A stretch of 64,000 bases of DNA, from the NCBI GenBank assembly GCA_903896925.1, contig CAITZM010000081.1, positions 12,111-76,110 on the forward strand, in the 5' to 3' direction. Shown here one piece after another: positions 4,175 to 27,630 of the stretch. The stretch comes from an uncultured Lentisphaerota bacterium (lineage in GTDB: Bacteria; Verrucomicrobiota; Kiritimatiellia; CAIQIC01). The stretch's first letter is position 1. Each line of letters opens with the position of its first letter. A program made the translations under genes and the position numbers. The notes below the pieces were generated by a model. That model was not told the origin of the DNA and did not search any database. It saw only the letters and a program-made list of their open reading frames with translations.

Positions 4175-4395
4175 CCGAAGCAAGAATTTACCCGAAAGGA
4201 AAACAACCCATGAACTCTGTCGAACGGGTCCACACGGCCCTCAAACTCGGCGTCTTCGTCGCCTTGCTGCTGGCGACGTGGGACAGCTTCGGGATCTGCT
4301 AGGAGCTTTTTATGGAGAACACCTCTATGACAACGTGGTCACTGGAACGCCCCAACCGTGGAATTTCTAAAGAAAATTGCCCGTATCTTTCCACG

Positions 4396-4447
4396 GCGAA
4401 AGAAAAAGTCACCCGGCGGCCGTCACGAAAGTGACGGTCGCCGGGTG
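4396..4447 (-). terminator. rho-independent terminator for the minus-strand regulator gene ending at 4457
   Basis: 17-bp near-perfect inverted repeat (CACCCGGCGGCCGTCAC GAAA GTGACGGTCGCCGGGTG, one mismatch) at 4410-4447. On the minus strand it is followed by a U-rich tract (ACUUUUUCUUUCG). Confidence 0.6.
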
Positions 4448-4456
4448 CATCAACCC

Positions 4457-5098
4457 TTACATCGCTCGTGCTGCCCGTAGCCCGGCCCGCCAGGCCGGCA
4501 ACCGGCCGACCTCGCGCACCAGGCTTGCTCCCCAGCAGCCGTTGAGCTTCCGCCCGATCCGCCGCTTGGCCTGCGTCACCGCCGGCGCGCTGACCTGGCA
4601 ACTGAACGCGATCTCGTTGGTGCCACGGCCTTCCACCAGCGCCTGCAGCACCTTGAGCTCGCGGATGGTCAGCAGCGGCTCGATCAGCGACCAGTCGATG
4701 TCGCGCGCCGCCAACGTAGCAGCATCCTCGCCATCCGATGCCAGCAGGTCGCCGAACGTCAACTCCTCGCCGGCCTCGTCATGCGCCGGGGCCTCCATAT
4801 CGGCCATGACCACCTGCTTGTCGAGTGTGGCGCCGGGGCACATGGCGTCCATCCTGCCTGCGTACTGCGACCGATGGCCGGATTTGAGCCGCTGGATCGT
4901 GTAGTAGGCCACGCTCCTGGGCATCAGCTCCTTACCCTGGTTCTCCAACACCTCGATGGCCTGGGCGGCCATGCACATGCCGTCCTGTACCAGCTCTTCG
5001 GGGTCTTCCGCTCCGGTGGTCTTCACTGCCTGCGGCACCACCGCGATCAGCATCGGCTGGATGACGTCCAGCAACAGCTCGCCTGCTCTTGGGCTCAT
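4457..5098 (-). CDS. sigma-70 region-4 / LuxR-type HTH regulator, 213 aa, island-encoded
   Basis: C-terminal segment ELKVLQALVEGRGTNEIAFSCQVSAPAVTQAKRRIGRKL fits the region-4 / LuxR HTH pattern. Dedicated upstream promoter and downstream terminator. Paralogous segment at 7715-8335. Confidence 0.5.
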   Translation of the reverse strand: MSPRAGELLLDVIQPMLIAVVPQAVKTTGAEDPEELVQDGMCMAAQAIEVLENQGKELMPRSVAYYTIQRLKSGHRSQYAGRMDAMCPGATLDKQVVMADMEAPAHDEAGEELTFGDLLASDGEDAATLAARDIDWSLIEPLLTIRELKVLQALVEGRGTNEIAFSCQVSAPAVTQAKRRIGRKLNGCWGASLVREVGRLPAWRAGLRAARAM

Positions 5099-5195
5099 AC
5101 GCCCTCCTGAAATGCAGACGGCCCCACGCGGCCGCCAAGGTTGGTTGGTCGGCCGGCGTGGGCGGCAGGAGGCGAGTGCTAACCCGACTCAGGCT

Positions 5196-5225
5196 ATTAT
5201 GCCGGGGTAACACATGACGGTTTAA
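5196..5225 (-). promoter_or_regulatory. sigma70-like promoter copy 1 (minus strand: TTAAAC, 18-nt spacer, CATAAT)
   Basis: Plus strand reads ..tattatgccggggtaacacatgacggtttaagc... The reverse complement gives TTAAAC-N18-CATAAT about 95 nt upstream of the start codon at 5098. The same module recurs at 7482-7509 and 7575-7602. Confidence 0.45.
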
Positions 5226-5267
5226 GCAGCAGGTGGCGTGGCGTCTGCGGGCCGTCTGTGAGACGGC

Positions 5268-5295
5268 GGGGGGGGCTCCGGCCGGCGCCCCCCCC
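5268..5295. repeat. G8-N12-C8 homopolymer hairpin between two island transcription units
   Basis: GGGGGGGG CTCCGGCCGGCG CCCCCCCC. It sits just after the stop (5305) of the upstream minus-strand operon and before promoter copy 1. No U-tract follows. Confidence 0.4.
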
Positions 5296-5304
5296 CCGCG
5301 CGGT

Positions 5305-5748
5305 TCACGCCGCCGCGCGCAGCTTGAGCTCATCCACCAGGGCGCTCGCCTGCTTGCGGTCGAGCGCGTAGAGGTCGGCGACGCCGAAGTACTGGTGCAC
5401 CTCGGCGTTGAGCTGGCTGAGCGACAGGTCCTGGCGCTCGGCCAGGTCGCGGATGAACCGGAGCTGCTTGGCGCTCGCCTGTTCGGCCGGCCTGCCGACC
5501 GGCACAGCCGCCGCCGGAGCCGCCGGTGGCGCCGCGGGCTGGGCCGCCGTGGGCGCGGCCTGGCCGTGGAGCTCGGTCTCCACCGCCTGCCGCACGAGTG
5601 CGAACGTCTGGCGCATGCGCTCCTGGACCTCCCCGGGCTGGAGCGCGTCGGGGAGCTCGAGCTCCACGGCGGCGTGGTAGCTCTGCGAGCTGAACTCCTG
5701 CCCCGGCACGGGGACTTTCTTGCTGTAGCTGGCACTGAGCTTGAGCAT
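5305..5748 (-). CDS. hypothetical protein, 147 aa, with an Ala/Pro-rich linker and conserved C-terminal helix (KQLRFIRDLAERQDLSLSQLNAEVHQYFG)
   Basis: Clean ORF, start 11 nt after the preceding 70-aa ORF. The architecture resembles small plasmid/phage-associated proteins. No family assigned. Confidence 0.45.
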   Translation of the reverse strand: MLKLSASYSKKVPVPGQEFSSQSYHAAVELELPDALQPGEVQERMRQTFALVRQAVETELHGQAAPTAAQPAAPPAAPAAAVPVGRPAEQASAKQLRFIRDLAERQDLSLSQLNAEVHQYFGVADLYALDRKQASALVDELKLRAAA

Positions 5749-5758
5749 GGGTGTCTCC

Positions 5759-5971
5759 TCAGGGCGCCAGCGCCAGGGTCGGCGCAGGCGGCCGCCGCCG
5801 CACCTGCTGCGCGTGGGTATCTTCGGCCTCGCCCAACGCCTGAGGGGCGAGGTGTTCGGCCACCAGGGCCGTCCGCAGCGGGCCGGAGGCCGTGATGGTC
5901 ATCCGGAGCTTCCGGCCGCTGTCGAGGCGCGCGCCCCGGGCGACGGCCAGCACTACGTGATACGTGTTCAT
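5759..5971 (-). CDS. small hypothetical protein, 70 aa
   Basis: Compact ORF between the clamp-homolog gene and the 147-aa gene on the same strand. Weak support only. Confidence 0.25.
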   Translation of the reverse strand: MNTYHVVLAVARGARLDSGRKLRMTITASGPLRTALVAEHLAPQALGEAEDTHAQQVRRRPPAPTLALAP

Positions 5972-6121
5972 GGGTTCCTTGGGGTGGGGTTGGTCTGCAC
6001 AGCGGCTGCACCGCAGCCGGCGGCGGCCGCCGCCGTGGTGGGCCCGCGTGCGGGCTGGCTGCGGCTGGCTACAAGGCCCAGGGCCACCGGGGTCAACCGG
6101 CGGCCCGTGGGGTGGGGTGGG

Positions 6122-7270
6122 CTAGCGTCCCGGCTGGGGGCGCCGGGGCTGGCCGGGTGTCGGCTGGGAGGCGGGGCTGCGCAGCGGCATCAGCACATGG
6201 AGGCCGCCCTGCCGGTCACGGCTGTACAGCGGGCCCTGCCCATCCGCCCAGCGGAACGCACGGAACCCTGCGGCCAGCGCGGCCAGCAGGTAGGTGCGGT
6301 CCACGCTGAGGTGGGCGGTGTGCGGTTCGAGCGTGCTGCTGGGGAGCCGCAGGCTGGTGGACGGTGGCGCGGGGTCCCCTGCGCGGCTCACCACGACGGC
6401 GCCCGCCTGCCGGTGGAGCGTCACCCCGGCAGGCTCGAGCTCCTGCCCTGTGAACAGCGGGAGCGCCTCGGTCAGCAGTCCGGCATCCGCCTCGCTGATG
6501 GTCAGCACCCACGCCCCTGCGGACGGTGGGATGACCTGGCGCCAGTGCGGGAAGGTGCCGCCGATGGTGCGCACCTGGTAATCCCAGCGGAGCGTCACCA
6601 GCCGGAACCAGCCGCCCGCCTGGTCGGCCGAGTACCCGACCTGCAGCTCCGTGGGCGTGAGCTCGGTCCAGAGCAGGAACTGGCTCGCCGGGACAATGCA
6701 GCTGGTGCGGAACGGCTGGCGGACCGTGTTGAAGGCGCTCAGGCGCCGGCCATCCGTGGCCACGACGTAGTCCCCCTCCGCGCTGCTGTCGAGATACAGG
6801 CCGCCCAGGCTAGGTCGGGACGTGTCGCGCGACGCGAACGGCGCGGCTTTGCGCAGGTGGCCGAGCAAGGCGGGATCGACCGCGCCGACCTCGGGCTTGG
6901 GCGGCAGCAGCGGCCACTCGTCCAGTGGGGTGGCCGTCACCTCGCGGCTGAGCCGCTGGCCGGCGAAGGTCTGGGTGAGTTGGAGGCGGTGGTCTACGGA
7001 GCCAAGCTCGACGGCTTCCGCTCCCCGGCCGTGGGCCAGGCGGCTGAGCTCCGTGAACGGCACGAGGGTCTCACCCGCGGTTTGGATGTGGGCTGATCCG
7101 CAGCGGTAGGCCAGCACGCTGTCGAGATCGGTCGCGGTAAGTGTGAGCCGGCCTGGGTAGGCGCTGAGCCTTACGAGTTGGAACACTGGCAGGGTGGTTT
7201 TAGGGGGCACGACCTTGGACAGGCCGGCCAGGGCGTCACGCAACTCGTGACGCGGGAGTGTTATTTTCAT
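6122..7270 (-). CDS. DNA polymerase III beta sliding-clamp (DnaN) homolog, divergent. Alternative upstream ATG at 7471 would add a 67-aa Pro-rich extension.
   Basis: MKITLPRHELRDALAGLSKVVPPKTTLPVFQLVRL..LTLTATDLD matches the DnaN N-terminus. Later blocks match too: YVVATDGRRLSA corresponds to VATDGHRLAV, GGTFPHWRQVIPP to DGRFPDYRRVLP, and HVLMPLRS to VVMPMRL. Length about 383 aa is clamp-like. Confidence 0.65.
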   Translation of the reverse strand: MKITLPRHELRDALAGLSKVVPPKTTLPVFQLVRLSAYPGRLTLTATDLDSVLAYRCGSAHIQTAGETLVPFTELSRLAHGRGAEAVELGSVDHRLQLTQTFAGQRLSREVTATPLDEWPLLPPKPEVGAVDPALLGHLRKAAPFASRDTSRPSLGGLYLDSSAEGDYVVATDGRRLSAFNTVRQPFRTSCIVPASQFLLWTELTPTELQVGYSADQAGGWFRLVTLRWDYQVRTIGGTFPHWRQVIPPSAGAWVLTISEADAGLLTEALPLFTGQELEPAGVTLHRQAGAVVVSRAGDPAPPSTSLRLPSSTLEPHTAHLSVDRTYLLAALAAGFRAFRWADGQGPLYSRDRQGGLHVLMPLRSPASQPTPGQPRRPQPGR

Positions 7271-7481
7271 GGGTTTCCTGGGGTTGGAGGTGGCGGCGCC
7301 CTTGGTCTGGCGCACAGCTTCGGCGCTGAGCCGGGTGCTGGGCACCCGGCGGGGAGGGCCTGCGCGGACGCCGTGCAGGCGCCGCAAGTCTTCCTCCGAC
7401 AGGGCGGCGGCGGGCCCGGGGAAATACGGCATCAGGCTCCTTGGGTGGGAGTGTGGTGACGGGTTAAACATCCGTCATCTT

Positions 7482-7509
7482 ATTATGCCGGGGTAGGGGG
7501 GTGTTTTAA
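7482..7509 (-). promoter_or_regulatory. sigma70-like promoter copy 2 (TTAAAA-N16-CATAAT) immediately upstream of the clamp-homolog ORF
   Basis: Reverse complement of cttattatgccggggtaggggggtgttttaag. The -10 element ends about 10 nt before the ATG at 7471. This gives either a leaderless transcript from 7471 or an approximately 200-nt leader for the ATG at 7270. Confidence 0.45.
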
Positions 7510-7574
7510 GCGGTGGGGCTTCTGCGGAGGGATCCCTGCTGGTACGCCGGTCAGGGCGTGGTTGCTACCGTAGT

Positions 7575-7602
7575 ATTATGCCGCGGCAAGACGGGCTTTT
7601 AA
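7575..7602 (-). promoter_or_regulatory. sigma70-like promoter copy 3 (TTAAAA-N16-CATAAT), tandem with copy 2
   Basis: Reverse complement of agtattatgccgcggcaagacgggcttttaagg. It lies 93 bp upstream of copy 2 and shares the TATTATGCCG(G/C)GG core. Confidence 0.4.
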
Positions 7603-7714
7603 GGCAGGGCGGAGCAGCGGCCTGCCGGCCCTCTCTGGTAGCTACAGACCGCAGAGCCCCGCTTGGCCGTCCCGCTCGGTCGCGGGCGCCACGGGCCGCA
7701 GAGTCGGCGTGATG

Positions 7715-8335
7715 CTACACCGGAACTCCTTGTGCGGTTCCGCTGCTTGGAACTAAGGCGGCCCAGGCCTTTCGAACTGTGGGGCCGCGGTGTTGCACGC
7801 AGCCAAGCGCCAAGAAAAACAGGCCGACCGCGCCGAGCGCAAGGCTGATGAGCCGCAGTACTTTTTGTTTTGTCAGGGCCGCAAGCGCCCCGAGCGCCCT
7901 GGCGATTTGAAAGGGCGTGACGCTTTTCGCGGGCGTGTTGTGGCGCTGCACAGGCCACGCGGACGACGCTCTCCAGCAGCCGCTGATCTTCCGTCCGCTC
8001 CGCCGCCTGGCCTGGGTGACCGCCGGCGCCGCCACCTGACCGCCGCACGCGCTCTCGCTGGTGCCGGGGCCCGCTACCAAGGCCGGCAGCACCTGTTGCT
8101 CGCGCTCGCTCAGCCCCGGCCGCAGTCCCTGGCGTAGCTGAGGGCGCGCCACGCCGTTCCCTCGGCCTAGCTGCCGGGCTTGCTCCCGGGGGCCTGTTTC
8201 GGCGGCTGTTGCGCCGCCCACAGCAGCCCGGCGGCCTGGGCCAGCAGGCCTGGTTTTCGGGTTGCCAGGGGGCGCGCCCCGAACCGCCGCTGCCGCGGCC
8301 GCCCCCTGGCCGGTGGCCGCACCTGGCCGGCGCAC
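7715..8335 (-). CDS. degenerate paralog of the region-4/LuxR HTH protein, with a C-terminal hydrophobic segment and a low-complexity N-terminus. Possibly frameshifted or pseudogenised.
   Basis: QVAAPAVTQARRRSGRKISGCWRAS aligns with QVSAPAVTQAKRRIGRKLNGCWGAS of the 4457-5098 protein. The ORF overlaps the 8167-8817 ORF by 169 nt in another frame. The Gly/Ala-rich N-terminus looks like a frame artefact. Confidence 0.3.
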   Translation of the reverse strand: MRRPGAATGQGAAAAAAVRGAPPGNPKTRPAGPGRRAAVGGATAAETGPREQARQLGRGNGVARPQLRQGLRPGLSEREQQVLPALVAGPGTSESACGGQVAAPAVTQARRRSGRKISGCWRASSAWPVQRHNTPAKSVTPFQIARALGALAALTKQKVLRLISLALGAVGLFFLALGCVQHRGPTVRKAWAALVPSSGTAQGVPV

Positions 8336-9466: not shown

Positions 9467-9857
9467 GGTTCACGTCCTTCCGCATAAGCTGTTCATCAAT
9501 TTCAGCCTGCGCAGGCTAGCAAGCGCGGCAGATTTTGTCAGCGAAAAATGCACACGATCATGCGCCGTGCTCAGGCAGCCCGCGCGGTTTCGGTATCGTT
9601 TCTATTTGACGCAACGGGCGTGGGAGTGCCCGGCAGCGTGTCCGGAGTCCGGGCTGTCCATGGGGTTGCACGGCTCTCAGCCCTGTGCTAATTTACGTGC
9701 ACATGAAGCGTAGGTATAAACTTGGGTCAAGCTGACCGGTGGCCGCGGAAAAGAAGCGGCTGTTGGCTGGCGCGGTGCAGACGGTCGCGCCAGTCGAGCG
9801 CGCCGCGGACCGGCCGGGTGTGGCGGACGGAAGCCTTTGCCGGCGTGGAGAGCGACG

Positions 9858-9995
9858 CAAATAAAAATATTTAAATTGACCAGGAATGTTTTCTTGTGCC
9901 CGGTGGCTGGAAAAAGAAATCACTTAATTATTTGTTATTATTTTAAATTGAAATACTTGTAAGTTTAATTTAGTCGCGATGTCAAACTGTCCCTG
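9858..9995. other. AT-rich segment (about 140 bp) in a GC-rich background. Likely island boundary or regulatory region.
   Basis: caaataaaaatatttaaattgacc ... ttattattttaaattgaaatacttgtaagtttaatttag. Contains two TTTAAATTGA repeats and -35-like hexamers. No ORF. Confidence 0.5.
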
Positions 9996-9999
9996 CCGC

Positions 10000-10455
10000 C
10001 TTTGCACCGCGCGCAGGGCTTGGCGCAGGTGATGAGGGTTGGGTGCACGCGCCAGCTAGTCCGAGTCCCCAGGAGCGCCGCCCTCCCGACCACCTACCCA
10101 GGGGCCACGATTCGTGGGAAGCTGGCGGATCGTGCAGGTGGCTGCGCTGGGCTGGCGGAGGCTGCCGCTGGCTCTGCCGTTGACGGGGCCCATCCGGCCG
10201 GGCCAAGGCCTTGCGGCTGTCTGCGCCTCCTGACGGGTTCCGTGTCAATATCACGCCGGGTGGGTACACCGGTTCGGTTGACCTGTCCGGCCGCGGCTCA
10301 GGGCCCTGTGGCGGGTGACGGGGCCGGTACTCCGGCGGCCGCTGACCCTGCGCCGTGCGGTGCGCACCAACCAGACTTTTTTCACAACATCTGCCAGCCG
10401 CCGCACACGACGGCCGCCCGTGAGCCATCGCCACCCTGTCGGGTGGTTTTTTTGT
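10000..10455 (+). ncRNA. candidate structured non-coding RNA (unknown family) ending in tandem intrinsic terminators
   Basis: About 450 bp of GC-rich sequence with no credible ORF. The only ORF is Ala/Gly/Pro/Arg-rich and runs into a terminator. A hairpin GGTGCGCACC with T-tract lies at 10359-10382. A second hairpin CCACCC-TGTC-GGGTGG followed by TTTTTTT lies at 10431-10453. Confidence 0.3.
10431..10453 (+). terminator. rho-independent terminator (plus strand)
   Basis: CCACCC TGTC GGGTGG followed by TTTTTTT. Confidence 0.55.
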
Positions 10456-10539
10456 AACTTCCCCTGAGAGCCTCCTGCTGACTTCCGTGACGTCTGCGGT
10501 GAAAGCATGTTCCCAACCCGCGGAAAAGTTTGCGCGCGA

Positions 10540-12699
10540 TCAGGCGAAGGGCATCAGGCGGCCGGGGGGGCCGTTGAGTTCGTCGTTCCAGTCGGCGGGT
10601 TTGGCGCCGGCGATGGTGGCGATGCGGCGCGAGGTCAGCACCGGTGCGCGCGCGTCGCGCTCCCGCACCGGGATGGCCTCGAGCGCGAAAATCTGCTGCG
10701 GGATCGGCGGCTTGCCGGGATCCTTGTAGCGCACGTAGAGCGCGGCCGGGTTGTCGTCGGCGAAGAACCGGACCACCGCGCCCTTGGCGCCGAGGCGGTA
10801 CTCGCGGTTGGTGATCAGCCCGCCGGTGACGAACCGCCGGAGGTGCGTGAAGAGGTCGAACTCGTAGACCACCGTCAGCACGCGCTCGCGGTCGAGGATG
10901 GAGCAGTGGAGCAGCGTGCCATCGACGAACAGCTTGTCGGCCGGCGCGACCACCTTGCAGCGCCCGTCGCGCCAGACGAGCAGCAGCTTGTCGAGCGGCG
11001 AGCAGGTGAGCAGCGGCTCGCCCGCGATCTTGTGGCCCAGGTAGCCCTTCTCGCGGTCGTAGGCGATGGCCAGCGCGTCGGAGGTCAGCTCGCGCTCGGA
11101 GATCTCGCCGAACTGCGCGAGCTGCGTGCGCCGCGGATAGTCCGCGCCGTATTTCTTCAGCAGGTTCCGCAGGTAGCGGATGGCGTAGGGCGCGAGCGCG
11201 TCCAGGTTCTGGCCCACCTCCGCCAGCTCGGCGCGGCTGCGCTCCAGCTCCGCCCGGTTCTTCTCGATGTCGAACAGCGAGATGCGCCGGACGGGGATGC
11301 CGAGCAGCGTCTCCAGGTCGTCCTTGGTCACGTCGCGCTGGAGCTGGTCGCGGAACGGCAGCAGCCCGTCGAGCACGGCCTGCTGCACGGCGGCCGCGGT
11401 GGCGCAGGTCTCGATGCTCTTGTAGATGCGCTGCTCGATGAACAGGCGGACGAGCGTCAGGCCGTGGAGCGCGTCCACCAGCTCGCGGCGCCGGTGCAGC
11501 AGCTCGGCGCGCAGCAGCTCGACCAGCCGCGCCGTGTTGTGGCGCAGGATCTCCGGCACCGTCAGCTCGACCGGCTTCTGGTCGTGGATGACGACGATGC
11601 GGCTGGCGACCTGCACCTGGCACTGCGTGAAGGCGAAGAGCGACTCCATGGCGCGGGCCGGATCCTGGTCCGGCGGCAGCTTGATCTCGATCTCGACCTG
11701 CTCGGCGGTGAAGTCGTTGAGGCTTTTGAGCTTGAGCCGCCCCTTGCGCGACGCCTCCTCGATGGAGGCCATGACCGCGTCGGTCGTGACGCCGAACGGC
11801 AGCGAGCGCAGCACCAACGTCTGTTCATCCTTCTGCTCGATGTGGGCGCGGAGCAGGACGTGCCCGCGCCCGTCGTCGTAGGCGCGCGCGTCCATCAGGC
11901 CGCCCTGCGGGAAGTCGGGCAGCACGCGGAGCGCCTTCTTCTGGAGGATGGCGATCTGCGCCTCGAGCAGCTCCGCGAAGTTGTGCGACAGGATGCGCGT
12001 GGAGATGCCCACGGCGATGCCCTCGGCGCCGAGCATCAGCAGCAGCGGGATCTTCGCCGGCAGGGAGACCGGCTCCTGCTTGCGGCCATCGTAGGACGGC
12101 ACGTACGCCGTGAGCGCGTCGTTGAACAACACTTCGCGCGCCAGGGGCGTCAGCCGGCACTCGATGTAGCGCACCGCGGCGGCCGGGTCGCCGGTGAAGA
12201 TGTTGCCGTAGTTGCCCTGCCGCTCGATCAGGTACTGCTTGTTCGCCAGCGTGACGAGCGCGTCGCCGATCGAGGCGTCGCCGTGCGGGTGGAACTGCAT
12301 GCAGTAGCCGACGATGTTGGCGACCTTGATGAACTTCCCGTCGTCGTTTTCGTGGAGCGAGAACAGGATGCGCCGCTGCACCGGTTTGAGGCCGTCGTCG
12401 AGGTCGGGGATGGCGCGGTCGCGGATGACATAGGCGGCGTACTGGAGAAAGTTGCTGTCCATCATCTGCTTGAGCGCGCCGTCGCCGGTGGCCTTCAGGC
12501 CCGTGGCTGGCGTTGCGGGCGGCATCTGGACAGCGTCCGTCCCGCCTTCGGCCGGGCTGTTGCCTACGGCTGCGGGGATGGCAGCGGCCGGCGCCGGCGG
12601 GGCCTGCATGCCGGGGAGTTCCGGCGCGGGCCCCGGATCGGGGTTTGGCGCGGGGTTGAACAGCGGCAGCTCGCCGGGTTTGTCGTCGGGCGCGCTCAC
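10540..12699 (-). CDS. parC: type IIA topoisomerase subunit A, ParC-like (topoisomerase IV) by size
   Basis: GLKPVQRRILFSL motif, then HPHGDASIGDALV. The active-site Tyr sits in AAVRYIECRL. Length 719 aa with no GyrA-box, so ParC is favoured over GyrA. Start overlaps the parE stop (ATGA). Confidence 0.8.
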   Translation of the reverse strand: MSAPDDKPGELPLFNPAPNPDPGPAPELPGMQAPPAPAAAIPAAVGNSPAEGGTDAVQMPPATPATGLKATGDGALKQMMDSNFLQYAAYVIRDRAIPDLDDGLKPVQRRILFSLHENDDGKFIKVANIVGYCMQFHPHGDASIGDALVTLANKQYLIERQGNYGNIFTGDPAAAVRYIECRLTPLAREVLFNDALTAYVPSYDGRKQEPVSLPAKIPLLLMLGAEGIAVGISTRILSHNFAELLEAQIAILQKKALRVLPDFPQGGLMDARAYDDGRGHVLLRAHIEQKDEQTLVLRSLPFGVTTDAVMASIEEASRKGRLKLKSLNDFTAEQVEIEIKLPPDQDPARAMESLFAFTQCQVQVASRIVVIHDQKPVELTVPEILRHNTARLVELLRAELLHRRRELVDALHGLTLVRLFIEQRIYKSIETCATAAAVQQAVLDGLLPFRDQLQRDVTKDDLETLLGIPVRRISLFDIEKNRAELERSRAELAEVGQNLDALAPYAIRYLRNLLKKYGADYPRRTQLAQFGEISERELTSDALAIAYDREKGYLGHKIAGEPLLTCSPLDKLLLVWRDGRCKVVAPADKLFVDGTLLHCSILDRERVLTVVYEFDLFTHLRRFVTGGLITNREYRLGAKGAVVRFFADDNPAALYVRYKDPGKPPIPQQIFALEAIPVRERDARAPVLTSRRIATIAGAKPADWNDELNGPPGRLMPFA

Positions 12700-14513
12700 G
12701 CGTCGGCCTCCACGACCAGGTGGTTCATGATGTAGGCGCGCCGCTCGGGCGTGTTGCGGCCCATGTAGAAATTCAGCACCGCGGGCACGCTGTGCCGCTG
12801 GCTGACGCGCACCGGCGTCAGCCGCATCGCCGGGCCGATGAACTGCTTGAACTCCGCCGGCGAAATTTCGCCGAGCCCTTTGAACCGCGTCACCTCGGCG
12901 CCGCGCAGGCCCTTGACGGCGGTGTCGCGCTCGGCCTCGGAATAGCAGTAGTGCGTCTGCTTCGCGTTGCGGACGCGGAAGAGCGGCGTTTCGAGGATGT
13001 GGACATGGCCGTTGTGGACCACGGGCTCGAAGAAGCGCAGGAAGAACGTCAGCAGCAGGTTGCGGATGTGCAGGCCGTCCACGTCAGCGTCGGTGGCCAG
13101 GATGACCTTGGCGTAGCGCAGGCGCTCGGGCGACTCCTCGATGTCGAGGCTGCGCATCAGGTTGTAGAGCTCCTCGTTCTTGTACATGATGTCGCGGTTG
13201 AGATCGCAGACGTTCAGCGGCTTGCCGCGCAGCGTGAAGATCGCCTGCTTCATGACGTCGCGGCAGCTGACGATCGAGCCGCCGGCGGACTGGCCCTCGG
13301 TCAGGAAGATCATCGTCCCCTCGCCGGCGCCGGTTTCCGCGTCGAAGTGCTGCTTGCAGTCCTTGAGCTGCGGCACGCGGATCGAGGTGGAGCGGGCGCG
13401 CTCGCGGGCCATCTTCTTGATGGACTGCAGCTCCCGGCGGAGCTTGACGCTTTCCGCGATCTTGGCGAGCGCCTTCTCCGCCGCCAGCGGCTGGCGGTGC
13501 AACAGGTCCACGACGGCCTCGCGGACCTGCCCGACCAGCTCGCCGCGCAGCTCGGAGTTGCCCAGCTTGTTCTTGGTCTGCGACTCGAAGACCGGCTCCT
13601 GCAGGCGGATCGAGATCGCGCCGGCCATGCCCTCGCGGATGTCGTCGCCCTCGAATTTCTCCTTGGAGAACTCGTTGAACGCCTTGACCAGCCCCTCGCG
13701 GAACGCGCTCAGGTGCGTGCCGCCGTCGCGCGTGAACTGGCCGTTGACGAACGAAAAGAAGGTTTCCTCGAAGCGGTTGGTGTGGGCGAAGACCAGCTCC
13801 AGCGTCTTCGAGCGGAACGCCAGCGGCGGGTAGAGCGCCTCGTCGCCGACCTCGTCGCGCAGCAGGTCGCGCAGGCCGTCGCGCGAGTGGTAGACCTCCC
13901 CGTTGTATTCCAGTCGCAGCCCGGCGTTCAGGAACGCGTAGAGCTGCAGCCGGCGGGCGAGGTGCTCCTCGACGTACGCCGCCTTGCCGAAGATCTCCGG
14001 GTCGGGCTCGAAGCAGATGAACGTGCCGTCCGGCTCCCCGGGCGCCTCGCCTTGGGTTTCCTTCTTCAGCTTGCCGCGCGCGAAGACCGCGCCGGCGAAC
14101 ACGCCCGCGCGGAAGCTGCGGACCTCGAAGTGGGCCGAGAGCGCGTTGACCGCCTTGGTGCCGACGCCGTTGAGGCCGACGCTGAACTGGAAGACCTCGT
14201 TGCTGTACTTGGCGCCGGTGTTGATCTTCGAGACGCACTCCACCACCTTGCCCAGCGGGATGCCGCGCCCGAAGTCGCGCACCGTCACCCGCATGCCCTC
14301 GCGCGTCACCGCCACGCGCTGGCCGCAGCCCATGATGAACTCGTCCACGGCGTTGTCGACGATCTCCTTGAGGAGGATGTAGATGCCGTCGTCGTAGTCG
14401 AGGCCGTCGCCGACGCGGCCGATGTACATGCCCGTCCGCTTCCGGATGTGCTCCAGCGGCGAGAGGGTCTTGATCTTGCCCTCGTCGTAGTTGTGTTGTG
14501 GCGGCTTGCTCAT
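12696..14513 (-). CDS. parE: type IIA topoisomerase subunit B, ParE-like (topoisomerase IV)
   Basis: RKRTGMYIG, LLKEIVDNAVDE, QFSVGLNGVGTKAVNALS, EGQSAGGS, ILATDADVDGLHIRNLLLTFF. Length 605 aa without the GyrB insertion. Confidence 0.8.
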   Translation of the reverse strand: MSKPPQHNYDEGKIKTLSPLEHIRKRTGMYIGRVGDGLDYDDGIYILLKEIVDNAVDEFIMGCGQRVAVTREGMRVTVRDFGRGIPLGKVVECVSKINTGAKYSNEVFQFSVGLNGVGTKAVNALSAHFEVRSFRAGVFAGAVFARGKLKKETQGEAPGEPDGTFICFEPDPEIFGKAAYVEEHLARRLQLYAFLNAGLRLEYNGEVYHSRDGLRDLLRDEVGDEALYPPLAFRSKTLELVFAHTNRFEETFFSFVNGQFTRDGGTHLSAFREGLVKAFNEFSKEKFEGDDIREGMAGAISIRLQEPVFESQTKNKLGNSELRGELVGQVREAVVDLLHRQPLAAEKALAKIAESVKLRRELQSIKKMARERARSTSIRVPQLKDCKQHFDAETGAGEGTMIFLTEGQSAGGSIVSCRDVMKQAIFTLRGKPLNVCDLNRDIMYKNEELYNLMRSLDIEESPERLRYAKVILATDADVDGLHIRNLLLTFFLRFFEPVVHNGHVHILETPLFRVRNAKQTHYCYSEAERDTAVKGLRGAEVTRFKGLGEISPAEFKQFIGPAMRLTPVRVSQRHSVPAVLNFYMGRNTPERRAYIMNHLVVEADA

Positions 14514-27502: not shown

Positions 27503-27630
27503 GCGGTCTGCCCGCCGCCGGGCTGTCCGGCGGCGGCCGGCGCGCCCGGGCCGGGTTTTCTGGGAGCTTGACCTAGGGCTGCTTGGCCTTATACTCCGCC
27601 GGCTGTTCGACCTACTGACAGGAGATCTAG

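Follow-up and report, generated by a model that had tools for sequence, protein, structure and literature searches.

Genes for autoregulated sigma factors of the extracytoplasmic function (ECF) and other alternative types have a conserved, bipartite target promoter in front of the operon to which they belong, an arrangement that has been used to predict the promoters of ECF groups. Promoters of the sigma-28/FliA class follow the consensus TAAA-N15-GCCGATAA, and A-11 and T-7 are universal determinants of the -10 element. Phage sigma factors with promoter sets of their own include gp28 and gp34 of Bacillus phage SPO1 and gp55 of T4; in T4 late transcription, a DNA-loaded sliding clamp activates a minimal sigma factor. 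For the Kiritimatiellota, no papers on transcription signals were found, and to our knowledge almost nothing is known about such signals there. Here we describe a short repeat that occurs three times in a 64-kb stretch of contig CAITZM010000081.1 from an uncultured bacterium (the whole stretch is referred to as the window), once upstream of a gene for a 213-amino acid (aa) sigma-factor-like protein and twice upstream of an operon headed by a sliding clamp gene.

The three repeats are tentatively read as functional promoters of one type, with the 213-aa protein most likely their cognate, autoregulatory sigma factor; judged from sequence, this reading as a whole stands close to, but short of, an even chance. 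The promoter is probably a self-contained transcription switch of a familiar kind.

A repeated two-block motif and its distribution

The 13-mer TATTATGCCGSGG was found exactly three times on the plus strand of the window (5195-5207, 7481-7493, and 7574-7586) and in none of 100 dinucleotide-preserving shuffles; when one or two mismatches were permitted, no site in the window beyond the same three appeared. The minus-strand composite CTTAAA-N(15-20)-CATAAT was likewise confined to 5196-5226, 7482-7510, and 7575-7603 in the window, against an expectation of 0. The consensus shared by the copies, C-TTAAA ... CC(S)CGG-CATAAT-A on the minus strand, was longer than that given in the initial annotation, and its A+T blocks are conspicuous because the G+C content along the window is 60-72%. 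The annotation's description of one core plus spaced hexamers recurring three times upstream of minus-strand genes was borne out, all three copies being oriented toward such genes, as was the tandem placement of copy 3, 93 bp upstream of copy 2. From the start of the 213-aa gene (5098), it is 98 nt upstream to copy 1; from the clamp start (7270), it is about 210 nt upstream to copy 2 and about 305 nt to copy 3. Sigma-70-like geometry, which had been claimed for each copy, was apparent in copies 2 and 3: a sigma-70 scan detected both as TTAAAA-16-CATAAT, identical to the consensus at 9 of 12 positions (4/6 in the -35 hexamer and 5/6 in the -10). Copy 1 fitted only loosely, with TTAAAC as its first hexamer (3/6) and a spacing of 18, and was passed over by the scan. 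CATAAT agrees with TATAAT at 5/6 positions in all three window copies.

Exact and homologous look-ups retrieved about 20 related metagenome loci (numbered with the prefix L), and 18 distinct motif instances from the window and these relatives were tabulated and aligned on the -10 element for position counts. Invariant in 18/18 were C-35, T-34, A-32, A-31, A-30, G-14, G-13, C-12, A-11, A-8, and T-7; T-33 and A-9 (17/18 each), C-15 (16/18), and A-6 (15/18) were nearly so, giving 15 positions that are invariant or almost invariant. Position -29 was A or T in 17/18, and position -10 was T in 14 instances and C in 4 (CGG-CAyAAT-A). Between the blocks, a 13-nt spacer core was free to vary and pyrimidine-rich; the flanks were variable as well. 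A T and a G located 5-6 nt downstream of the -10 hexamer were shared by 16-17 of the 18 and mark the likely start region. The hexamers were 16 bp apart in 17/18, with a spacing of 18 in window copy 1 alone because of a 2-bp insertion relative to its orthologues. In all but one of the 18 instances, a homologous gene follows on the same strand. Two invariant blocks at a fixed distance, a free spacer, and fixed A-11/T-7 together are the signature expected of a sigma-70-family promoter. The idea of a single promoter module used three times over was strengthened by these 18 instances, with their two invariant blocks, fixed spacing, variable spacer, and co-orientation with the gene.

The sequence that follows the -10 element was used to define four classes, between which nothing was alignable beyond the motif itself (neither spacer core, upstream flank, nor downstream sequence). 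Class A is proximal to the 213-aa gene (window copy 1; L008, L012, L019, L033, and L034). At the same gene, class D provides an alternative proximal promoter (L014, L015, L016, and L035; in L007 it survives as a decayed relic). Class B is proximal to the clamp (window copy 2; L007), and class C is the upstream partner of an A, B, or D copy (window copy 3; L007, L008 twice, L014, L015, and L016). As the tandem layout is seen in the relatives too, the tandem pair of the window is itself conserved. The distances of class C copies to their partners (57, 57, 73, 93, 94, and 96 bp) are unphased, and the two copies of a pair therefore look like independent promoters rather than one composite site. 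A small RNA starting from copy 3 was considered but not supported: there is no terminator before copy 2, and partner distances range between 57 and 96 bp.

A position matrix built from the tabulated instances was scanned over the window and 259 kb of related loci. The window yielded the three sites at 30.5-35.9 bits, the next best site reaching 10 bits and the maximum in shuffled sequence being 18. In the related loci, all sites of at least 29 bits adjoin a homologue of the 213-aa gene or of the clamp gene, with one exception at L008 4513. No intermediate or weaker sites before other genes were found in either set, nor was there the degenerate recurrence before many unrelated host genes that marks a housekeeping promoter. 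The motif stands 97-125 nt upstream of the sigma-like gene in the window, L008, L012, L014-L016, L019, and L033-L035; every close homologue (at least 74% identity) with upstream DNA available either has a motif promoter or, in L007, follows a clamp operon that carries the pair. Candidate host-type promoters were of another kind: TTGACC-16-TATACT at window position 27568 and TTGACT-16-GAGAAT 3' of the shared gene unit in L012, L033, and L035. With no graded series of weaker sites and host candidates of the TTGAC type, the motif is therefore not simply the housekeeping consensus of the organism. A scan of a genome collection with the class C pattern GGCATAATNNNNNGGTTGCGGCC returned 7 hits, as many as chance would give, all in unrelated taxa and all lacking TTAAA at -35; the species representatives in the collection apparently do not include this lineage. 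The predicted promoter type is specific to a lineage within the uncultured Kiritimatiellota.

The exception at L008 (4513-4640) is an orphan tandem pair with no gene downstream on its strand. It duplicates the L008 pair at 9755-9877 and is broken inside the -10 element of its second copy, a sign of rearrangement with a breakpoint in the promoter.

Table 1. Features of the window, in order of position. Copies 1-3 are predicted promoters, and their start sites are predictions.
Feature	Position	Strand	Description
Terminator and conserved tail of the sigma-like gene	4356..4447	-	Hairpin 4447-4410, then T-run; tail 4398-4356; 3' end of the shared unit
Gene for the 213-aa sigma-factor-like protein	4457..5098	-	Three-helix region-2-like N-domain, 'SLD..tLgD' region-3.2-like linker, C-terminal region-4/GerE helix-turn-helix
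Conserved 5' leader of the sigma-like gene	5099..5190	-	Minimum free energy -50 kcal/mol, z = -2.95
Promoter copy 1 (class A, proximal to sigma-like gene)	5195..5226	-	C-TTAAA 5226-5221, CGG 5204-5202, CATAAT 5201-5196, A 5195; CTTAAACCGTCATGTGTTACCCCGGCATAAT (5226-5196); 30.5 bits; spacing 18, atypical; start ~5190-5188 (TGA); orthologues 97-98 nt 5' of gene in L012, L033, L034, L008, L019
Two small genes 3' of the clamp gene	5305..5971	-	70 aa at 5759-5971; 147 aa, weakly GemA-like, at 5305-5748
Accessory sliding clamp (DnaN-like), 382 aa	6122..7270	-	Pfam DNA_pol3_beta, phrog_947; first gene from copies 2 and 3
Promoter copy 2 (class B, proximal to clamp operon)	7481..7510	-	C-TTAAAA 7510-7504, CGG 7490-7488, CATAAT 7487-7482, A 7481; CTTAAAACACCCCCCTACCCCGGCATAAT (7510-7482); 35.9 bits; spacing 16; start ~7476-7474; orthologue L007 7625-7654, before clamp homologue
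Promoter copy 3 (class C, upstream member of tandem pair)	7574..7603	-	C-TTAAAA 7603-7597, CATAAT 7580-7575; CTTAAAAGCCCGTCTTGCCGCGGCATAAT (7603-7575); 35.9 bits; start ~7569-7567

The sigma-like protein and the unit that encodes it

The 213-aa protein is most likely a divergent, minimal sigma-70-family protein composed of region 2, a linker, and region 4. Pfam assigned it to GerE (1.9e-7). In profile searches against the PDB, its best solved relative was S. aureus sigB (8x6g_H, E 1.4e-4); a broader profile of 40 members found the same entry at 3.6e-7, together with SigA1 and SigA entries, the match spanning positions 86-199, that is, the region-3.2-like linker and region 4. Among the 40 members, Pfam Sigma70_r4 or r4_2 was recognized in some and GerE in 13, and the NCBIfam family sigma70-ECF matched 8 of 20 members (best E 1.7e-5). 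When an AlphaFold model (mean predicted local distance difference test score 71, about 80-90 in both domains) was compared with the PDB by Foldseek, almost exclusively sigma factors were listed (sigH, sigB, SigA, WhiG, and sigma-28; best E 3.8e-4), and the named matches among viral models (BFVD) were phage sigma factors. An alignment of 20 homologues showed a conserved G-A-E-D-x-x-E-L-V-Q-D that resembles the region 2.1/2.2 motif of ECF sigma factors, the linker 'SLD...tLgDlLa', and the C-terminal helix-turn-helix (HTH); a C-terminal tail, PxWRAGLRA, is conserved in the family alignment. Alignment to E. coli RpoE by hhalign was colinear but marginal (E 0.011). The initial annotation had suggested that an HTH protein of the island might exert coordinated control. 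Coordination remains plausible given the shared promoters, and the protein's part in it was recast: being sigma-like by profiles, Foldseek, and NCBIfam, it would read the promoter directly instead of repressing or activating a promoter of the sigma-70 type.

The family to which the protein belongs is large and undescribed, with more than 1,100 clusters at 50% identity (1,165 family clusters at E <= 1e-3 in an exhaustive hidden Markov model search). Automatic annotation labels its members LuxR/CsgD regulators, and one homologue is assigned by NCBI to a Kiritimatiellota metagenome-assembled genome. Distant members in L009/L010 (61% identity) and L011 (39%) sit among SSB, RadC, NERD, type I restriction-modification, and integrase/TetR genes, typical company in mobile elements or defence islands. 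A search for an analogous repeated motif near distant members (L009, L011, L020, L021, and L023) gave only chance matches inside coding regions. Within the window, a remnant of a second sigma-like gene, comprising the region-4 part only, lies just upstream of the tandem pair (7968-8120, minus strand; 76% nucleotide identity to 4527-4679). It is contained in an open reading frame (ORF; 7715-8335) whose C terminus weakly matches a DUF4337 transmembrane segment, and looks like a mosaic of gene fragments.

Between copy 1 and the gene, the leader consists of a 5'-proximal hairpin (5190-5174), the sequence CCUCCUG (5172-5166), and a central hairpin (5162-5123) with the C/A-rich loop ACCAACCAACC. CCUCCUG is complementary to the Shine-Dalgarno sequence CAGGAGG at 5109-5103. 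Close relatives conserve the leader to at least 90%, and compensatory changes were seen in 5 of 17 pairs of the fold across distant members. In class A leaders, the ability of CCUCCUG, 5' of the hairpin, to pair with the Shine-Dalgarno sequence suggests possible translational control. No known RNA family was matched in Rfam at either gathering or E-value thresholds. Genes of family members at 35-61% identity (L009, L011, and L023) are preceded by analogous hairpins that show compensatory changes. Each promoter class, moreover, is followed by a short hairpin from the predicted +1 (5174-5190 for copy 1, 7457-7477 for copy 2, and class D in L014/L016/L035); the stems differ (TGACGG/CCGTCA, GGGCGUG/CAUGCCC, and GAGU/ACUC) and the loops are similar (GTTTAAC, GATTAAC, and GGTTAGC). 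These could be 5' stabilizing stem-loops or protein-binding RNA hairpins, with modest folding z values of +0.7 to -3.5.

In blastn comparisons, homology between loci started exactly at the -35 block (window ~5227) and ended about 100 nt past the stop codon (~4340-4358). The shared unit of about 0.9 kb (promoter, leader, gene, and terminator) lies in neighbourhoods that bear no relation to one another: beside a type III CRISPR-Cas locus and GmrSD (L035), a PAS sensor and an amylase (L033), Sel1 and FHA-kinase genes (L034), a PQQ propeller and alanine dehydrogenase (L008), and a convergent parC (L019). One sample, JGI 3300037132, held three paralogous or strain copies. By this distribution, the predicted promoter-leader-gene-terminator unit behaves as a portable module. 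The tail that follows its terminator (4356-4398) is CCGTGGAAAATCCGGTCAATTTTGTTTAGCAATTC-like, and in L012, L033, and L035 it runs on into a conserved segment with the TTGACT-16-GAGAAT promoter and the start of another gene.

Proposed mechanism and competing explanations

In the proposed mechanism, the promoter would consist of C-TTAAA-(A/T), 13 variable bases, and CGG-CAyAAT-A, with a start 6-8 nt downstream at the conserved TG. The region-4 HTH of the 213-aa protein would contact CTTAAA and its region-2-like domain the extended CGGCATAAT element (CGGCAyAAT). Copy 1 would drive the 213-aa gene, and copies 2 and 3 the operon of the clamp, 70-aa, and 147-aa genes from two starts. The promoter-leader-sigma unit would act as a cassette with positive feedback, turning on the clamp operon next to it as well. 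We infer both the start 6-8 nt 3' of CATAAT and the use of the 213-aa protein as the sigma factor. A dedicated specificity is argued because C-12, G-13/G-14, and C-35 are invariant and yet lie off the sigma-70 consensus; these departures, the strict linkage of the motif to its genes, and its very high information content favour the 213-aa protein as the cognate sigma factor.

Several observations weigh against this assignment. The start sites are sequence predictions, and conservation of the motif is partly inheritance, because the instances are related by descent. Evidence for region 2 at the sequence level is weak, with Pfam Sigma70_r2 staying below threshold (E 0.017-0.04, in a few members only), and full-length Foldseek template modelling scores were about 0.25, which was ascribed to differences in domain orientation. 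The blocks lack the AAC and CGT motifs usual for ECF factors, and no motif was present upstream of more distant family members (35-61% identity), a result that would suit co-evolution of protein and promoter but also a motif unrelated to the protein. Other such points speak at the same time for a host factor. The repeats may be strong promoters that are read by the primary sigma factor of the host, alone or with an activator, and conserved through duplication and a need for high expression, the 213-aa protein having other targets or another role. TTAAAA-16-CATAAT, at 9/12 and found by the consensus scan, makes a fair sigma-70 promoter in its own right; an A-11 and a T-7 that are both fixed are more characteristic of sigma factors of groups 1-3 than of the ECF type, and G-14 resembles an extended -10 element. 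AT-rich hexamers are conspicuous in a genome of 65-70% GC. If a promoter is served by its own product alone, expression has to begin from another source; for a newly arrived gene the host would have to provide it, and in L007 the gene was kept although its own promoter has decayed. Yet T-12, the most conserved duplex contact of primary sigma factors, is C in 18/18, and nothing known about sigma-70 accounts for the invariance of C-35 and G-13. At about 36 bits, the sites are far above ordinary housekeeping promoters, no graded series of weaker sites accompanies them in the 64 kb of the window or the 259 kb of related loci, and the plausible host promoters of the window and loci have a -35 element of the TTGAC type. 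Recognition by the host factor is the main alternative, and we consider it somewhat less likely than the cognate-sigma reading.

The two blocks could also be transcription factor sites, bound by the 213-aa protein as a LuxR/GerE regulator or by another island protein, with CnTAA-like half-sites, 23 bp apart, forming a direct repeat over a weak promoter. The GerE-type HTH would suit such a role, CTTAAAw and CATAATA have C-n-T-A-A in common, and a short hairpin or dyad follows each -10 element. GerE/LuxR dimers, however, usually bind inverted repeats, and neither the blocks nor their surroundings show dyad symmetry; a palindromic operator of that type was rejected for the lack of a dyad in the conserved blocks. 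The downstream dyads are class-specific (TGACGG/CCGTCA and GGGCGTG/CATGCCC), pointing to an RNA or structural feature and not to one operator. The profile match of the protein, moreover, runs through the region-3.2-like linker, which response regulators lack, and the positions and spacing of the blocks fit -35/-10 geometry exactly. This explanation is unlikely. We regard as very improbable that the repeats have no part in transcription and instead mark the ends of a small mobile unit, serve it as recombination sites, or survive as inert duplication relics. Homology of the unit does begin exactly at the -35 block, the unit occurs in unrelated neighbourhoods, and the orphan pair in L008 (4513) is a truncated duplicate with no gene downstream. 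But no matching inverted or direct repeat was found at the other end of the unit or island, and no transposase or integrase gene is close by in the window. Orientation is constant, as is the distance of 97-98 nt that separates the repeat from the start codon, and a variable spacer between invariant blocks with fixed A-11/T-7 is a promoter signature. Inert relics would not hold 15 positions across paralogous classes that have otherwise diverged past alignment.

The clamp operon, neighbouring DNA, and comparison with described systems

The clamp protein scored under the cut-off of TIGR00663. An N-terminal extension of it from the in-frame ATGs at 7471 or 7432 was rejected, as all homologues begin MKITLPRHEL at the 7270 methionine. 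Synteny of the clamp, 70-aa, and 147-aa genes with the sigma-like gene is common only to the window and L007; in L007, where the promoter of the sigma-like gene itself is decayed, the gene lies 3' of a clamp operon bearing the pair. A more distant clamp contig (P0045) retains the order clamp, 70 aa, 143 aa, and a DUF4230 gene follows both its clamp cluster and the L011 member of the sigma-like family. Most clamps of the family (P0037-P0083) have 475-490 aa, including a conserved C-terminal coiled-coil extension (…KEANEA…EDKQRR.E.E.VR.GLA.LQ.IKV), which is missing from the clamps of the window (382 aa) and L007 (380 aa).

Further upstream of the tandem pair are the sigma-like remnant, two genes of unknown function, and topoisomerase genes, short GyrB/GyrA-like genes of 605 and 719 aa at 10540-14513 that look like parE/parC. 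In L019 (889-957), the sigma unit is convergent to the parC 3' end and clamp genes are absent; the region beside parC has thus been rearranged between relatives. About 1 kb between the 215-aa gene and parC (9470-10540) is without a convincing ORF and contains a very A+T-rich stretch of about 120 bp (9880-10000) in a context of 68% G+C, as well as a clean plus-strand intrinsic terminator at 10430-10447 (GCCACCCTGTCGGGTGG followed by T7). The segment, which has no Rfam match, may be the border of the island, contain an origin-like region, or encode an RNA that escaped annotation. Between the 147-aa gene and copy 1, a hairpin of G8-10/C8-10 runs without a T-run (GGGGGGGGCTCCGGCCGGCGCCCCCCCCCC, 5262-5300) may be a read-through barrier or an assembly-prone homopolymer.

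Reuse of one promoter had also been called typical of phage or integrative and conjugative element circuits, and this was not upheld. Motif and protein scans of viral contigs and tblastn searches of plasmid and phage records revealed no relatives, no tRNA was found in the window or at the island borders, and no flanking repeats of at least 11 nt (att-type) were found at those borders; only the unit of about 0.9 kb looks mobile.

A sharply defined, testable promoter motif is now tied to a large, unnamed sigma-like family in an uncultured phylum. If the 213-aa protein reads this promoter, the two would make a compact, orthogonal sigma/promoter pair and would explain how the accessory clamp operon is switched on; if a host sigma factor reads it, the motif would still be useful as a strong-promoter signature for an uncultured lineage.

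Among described systems, phage sigma factors offer one parallel, in that an accessory, non-core element would carry a sigma-like factor and reuse one promoter. The named BFVD neighbours of the 213-aa protein are phage sigma factors, and a clamp is part of the gene set, as in T4. Unlike the phage systems, no phage genes were found here, nothing in the viral, phage, and plasmid collections matched, and the link to the clamp is one of adjacency alone (window and L007), no motif for clamp binding having been identified. By analogy, the family could be a new group of minimal sigma factors deployed as self-contained cassettes and coupled, in the window and L007, to a co-regulated clamp, a cellular or mobile-element analogue of T4 late transcription with the C-terminal tail as the clamp contact, but we regard this as a long shot.

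The likeness to sigma-28/FliA promoters lies in a -35 element with TAAA, a long -10 element in which a G+C-rich tetranucleotide is followed by ATAA, and a similar spacing (TAAA-N14-CGGCATAA); sigma-28/FlgM and WhiG are also among the Foldseek matches of the 213-aa protein. In contrast to FliA, the protein has no region-3 domain, and there is no flagellar context. Membership of the sigma-28 promoter class was rejected, as CGGCATAA at N14 agrees with GCCGATAA at only 4/8 positions (CGGC instead of GCCG). With housekeeping sigma-70 promoters (TTGACA-17-TATAAT), the motif shares hexamers 16 bp apart (18 in copy 1) that match at 4/6 and 5/6 in copies 2 and 3, A-11/T-7, and a co-oriented position upstream of genes. 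It differs from them in its invariant C-12, CGG at -15 to -13, and C before TTAAA, and in occurring as 18 copies without degeneracy, with no weaker relatives elsewhere in the region.

Compared with autoregulated ECF and other alternative sigma factors, the blocks read CTTAAA(A/T) and CGGCATAAT instead of AAC and CGT, and the -10 element, with A-11 and T-7, is like that of group 1-3. No anti-sigma gene is adjacent, the N-domain falls under the Pfam Sigma70_r2 threshold, and promoters occur in tandem pairs. In common with those systems, the locus encodes a small sigma-like protein with region-2-like and region-4 domains, and a two-block motif of high information content stands before the protein's own gene and one neighbouring operon and is absent from the surrounding DNA.

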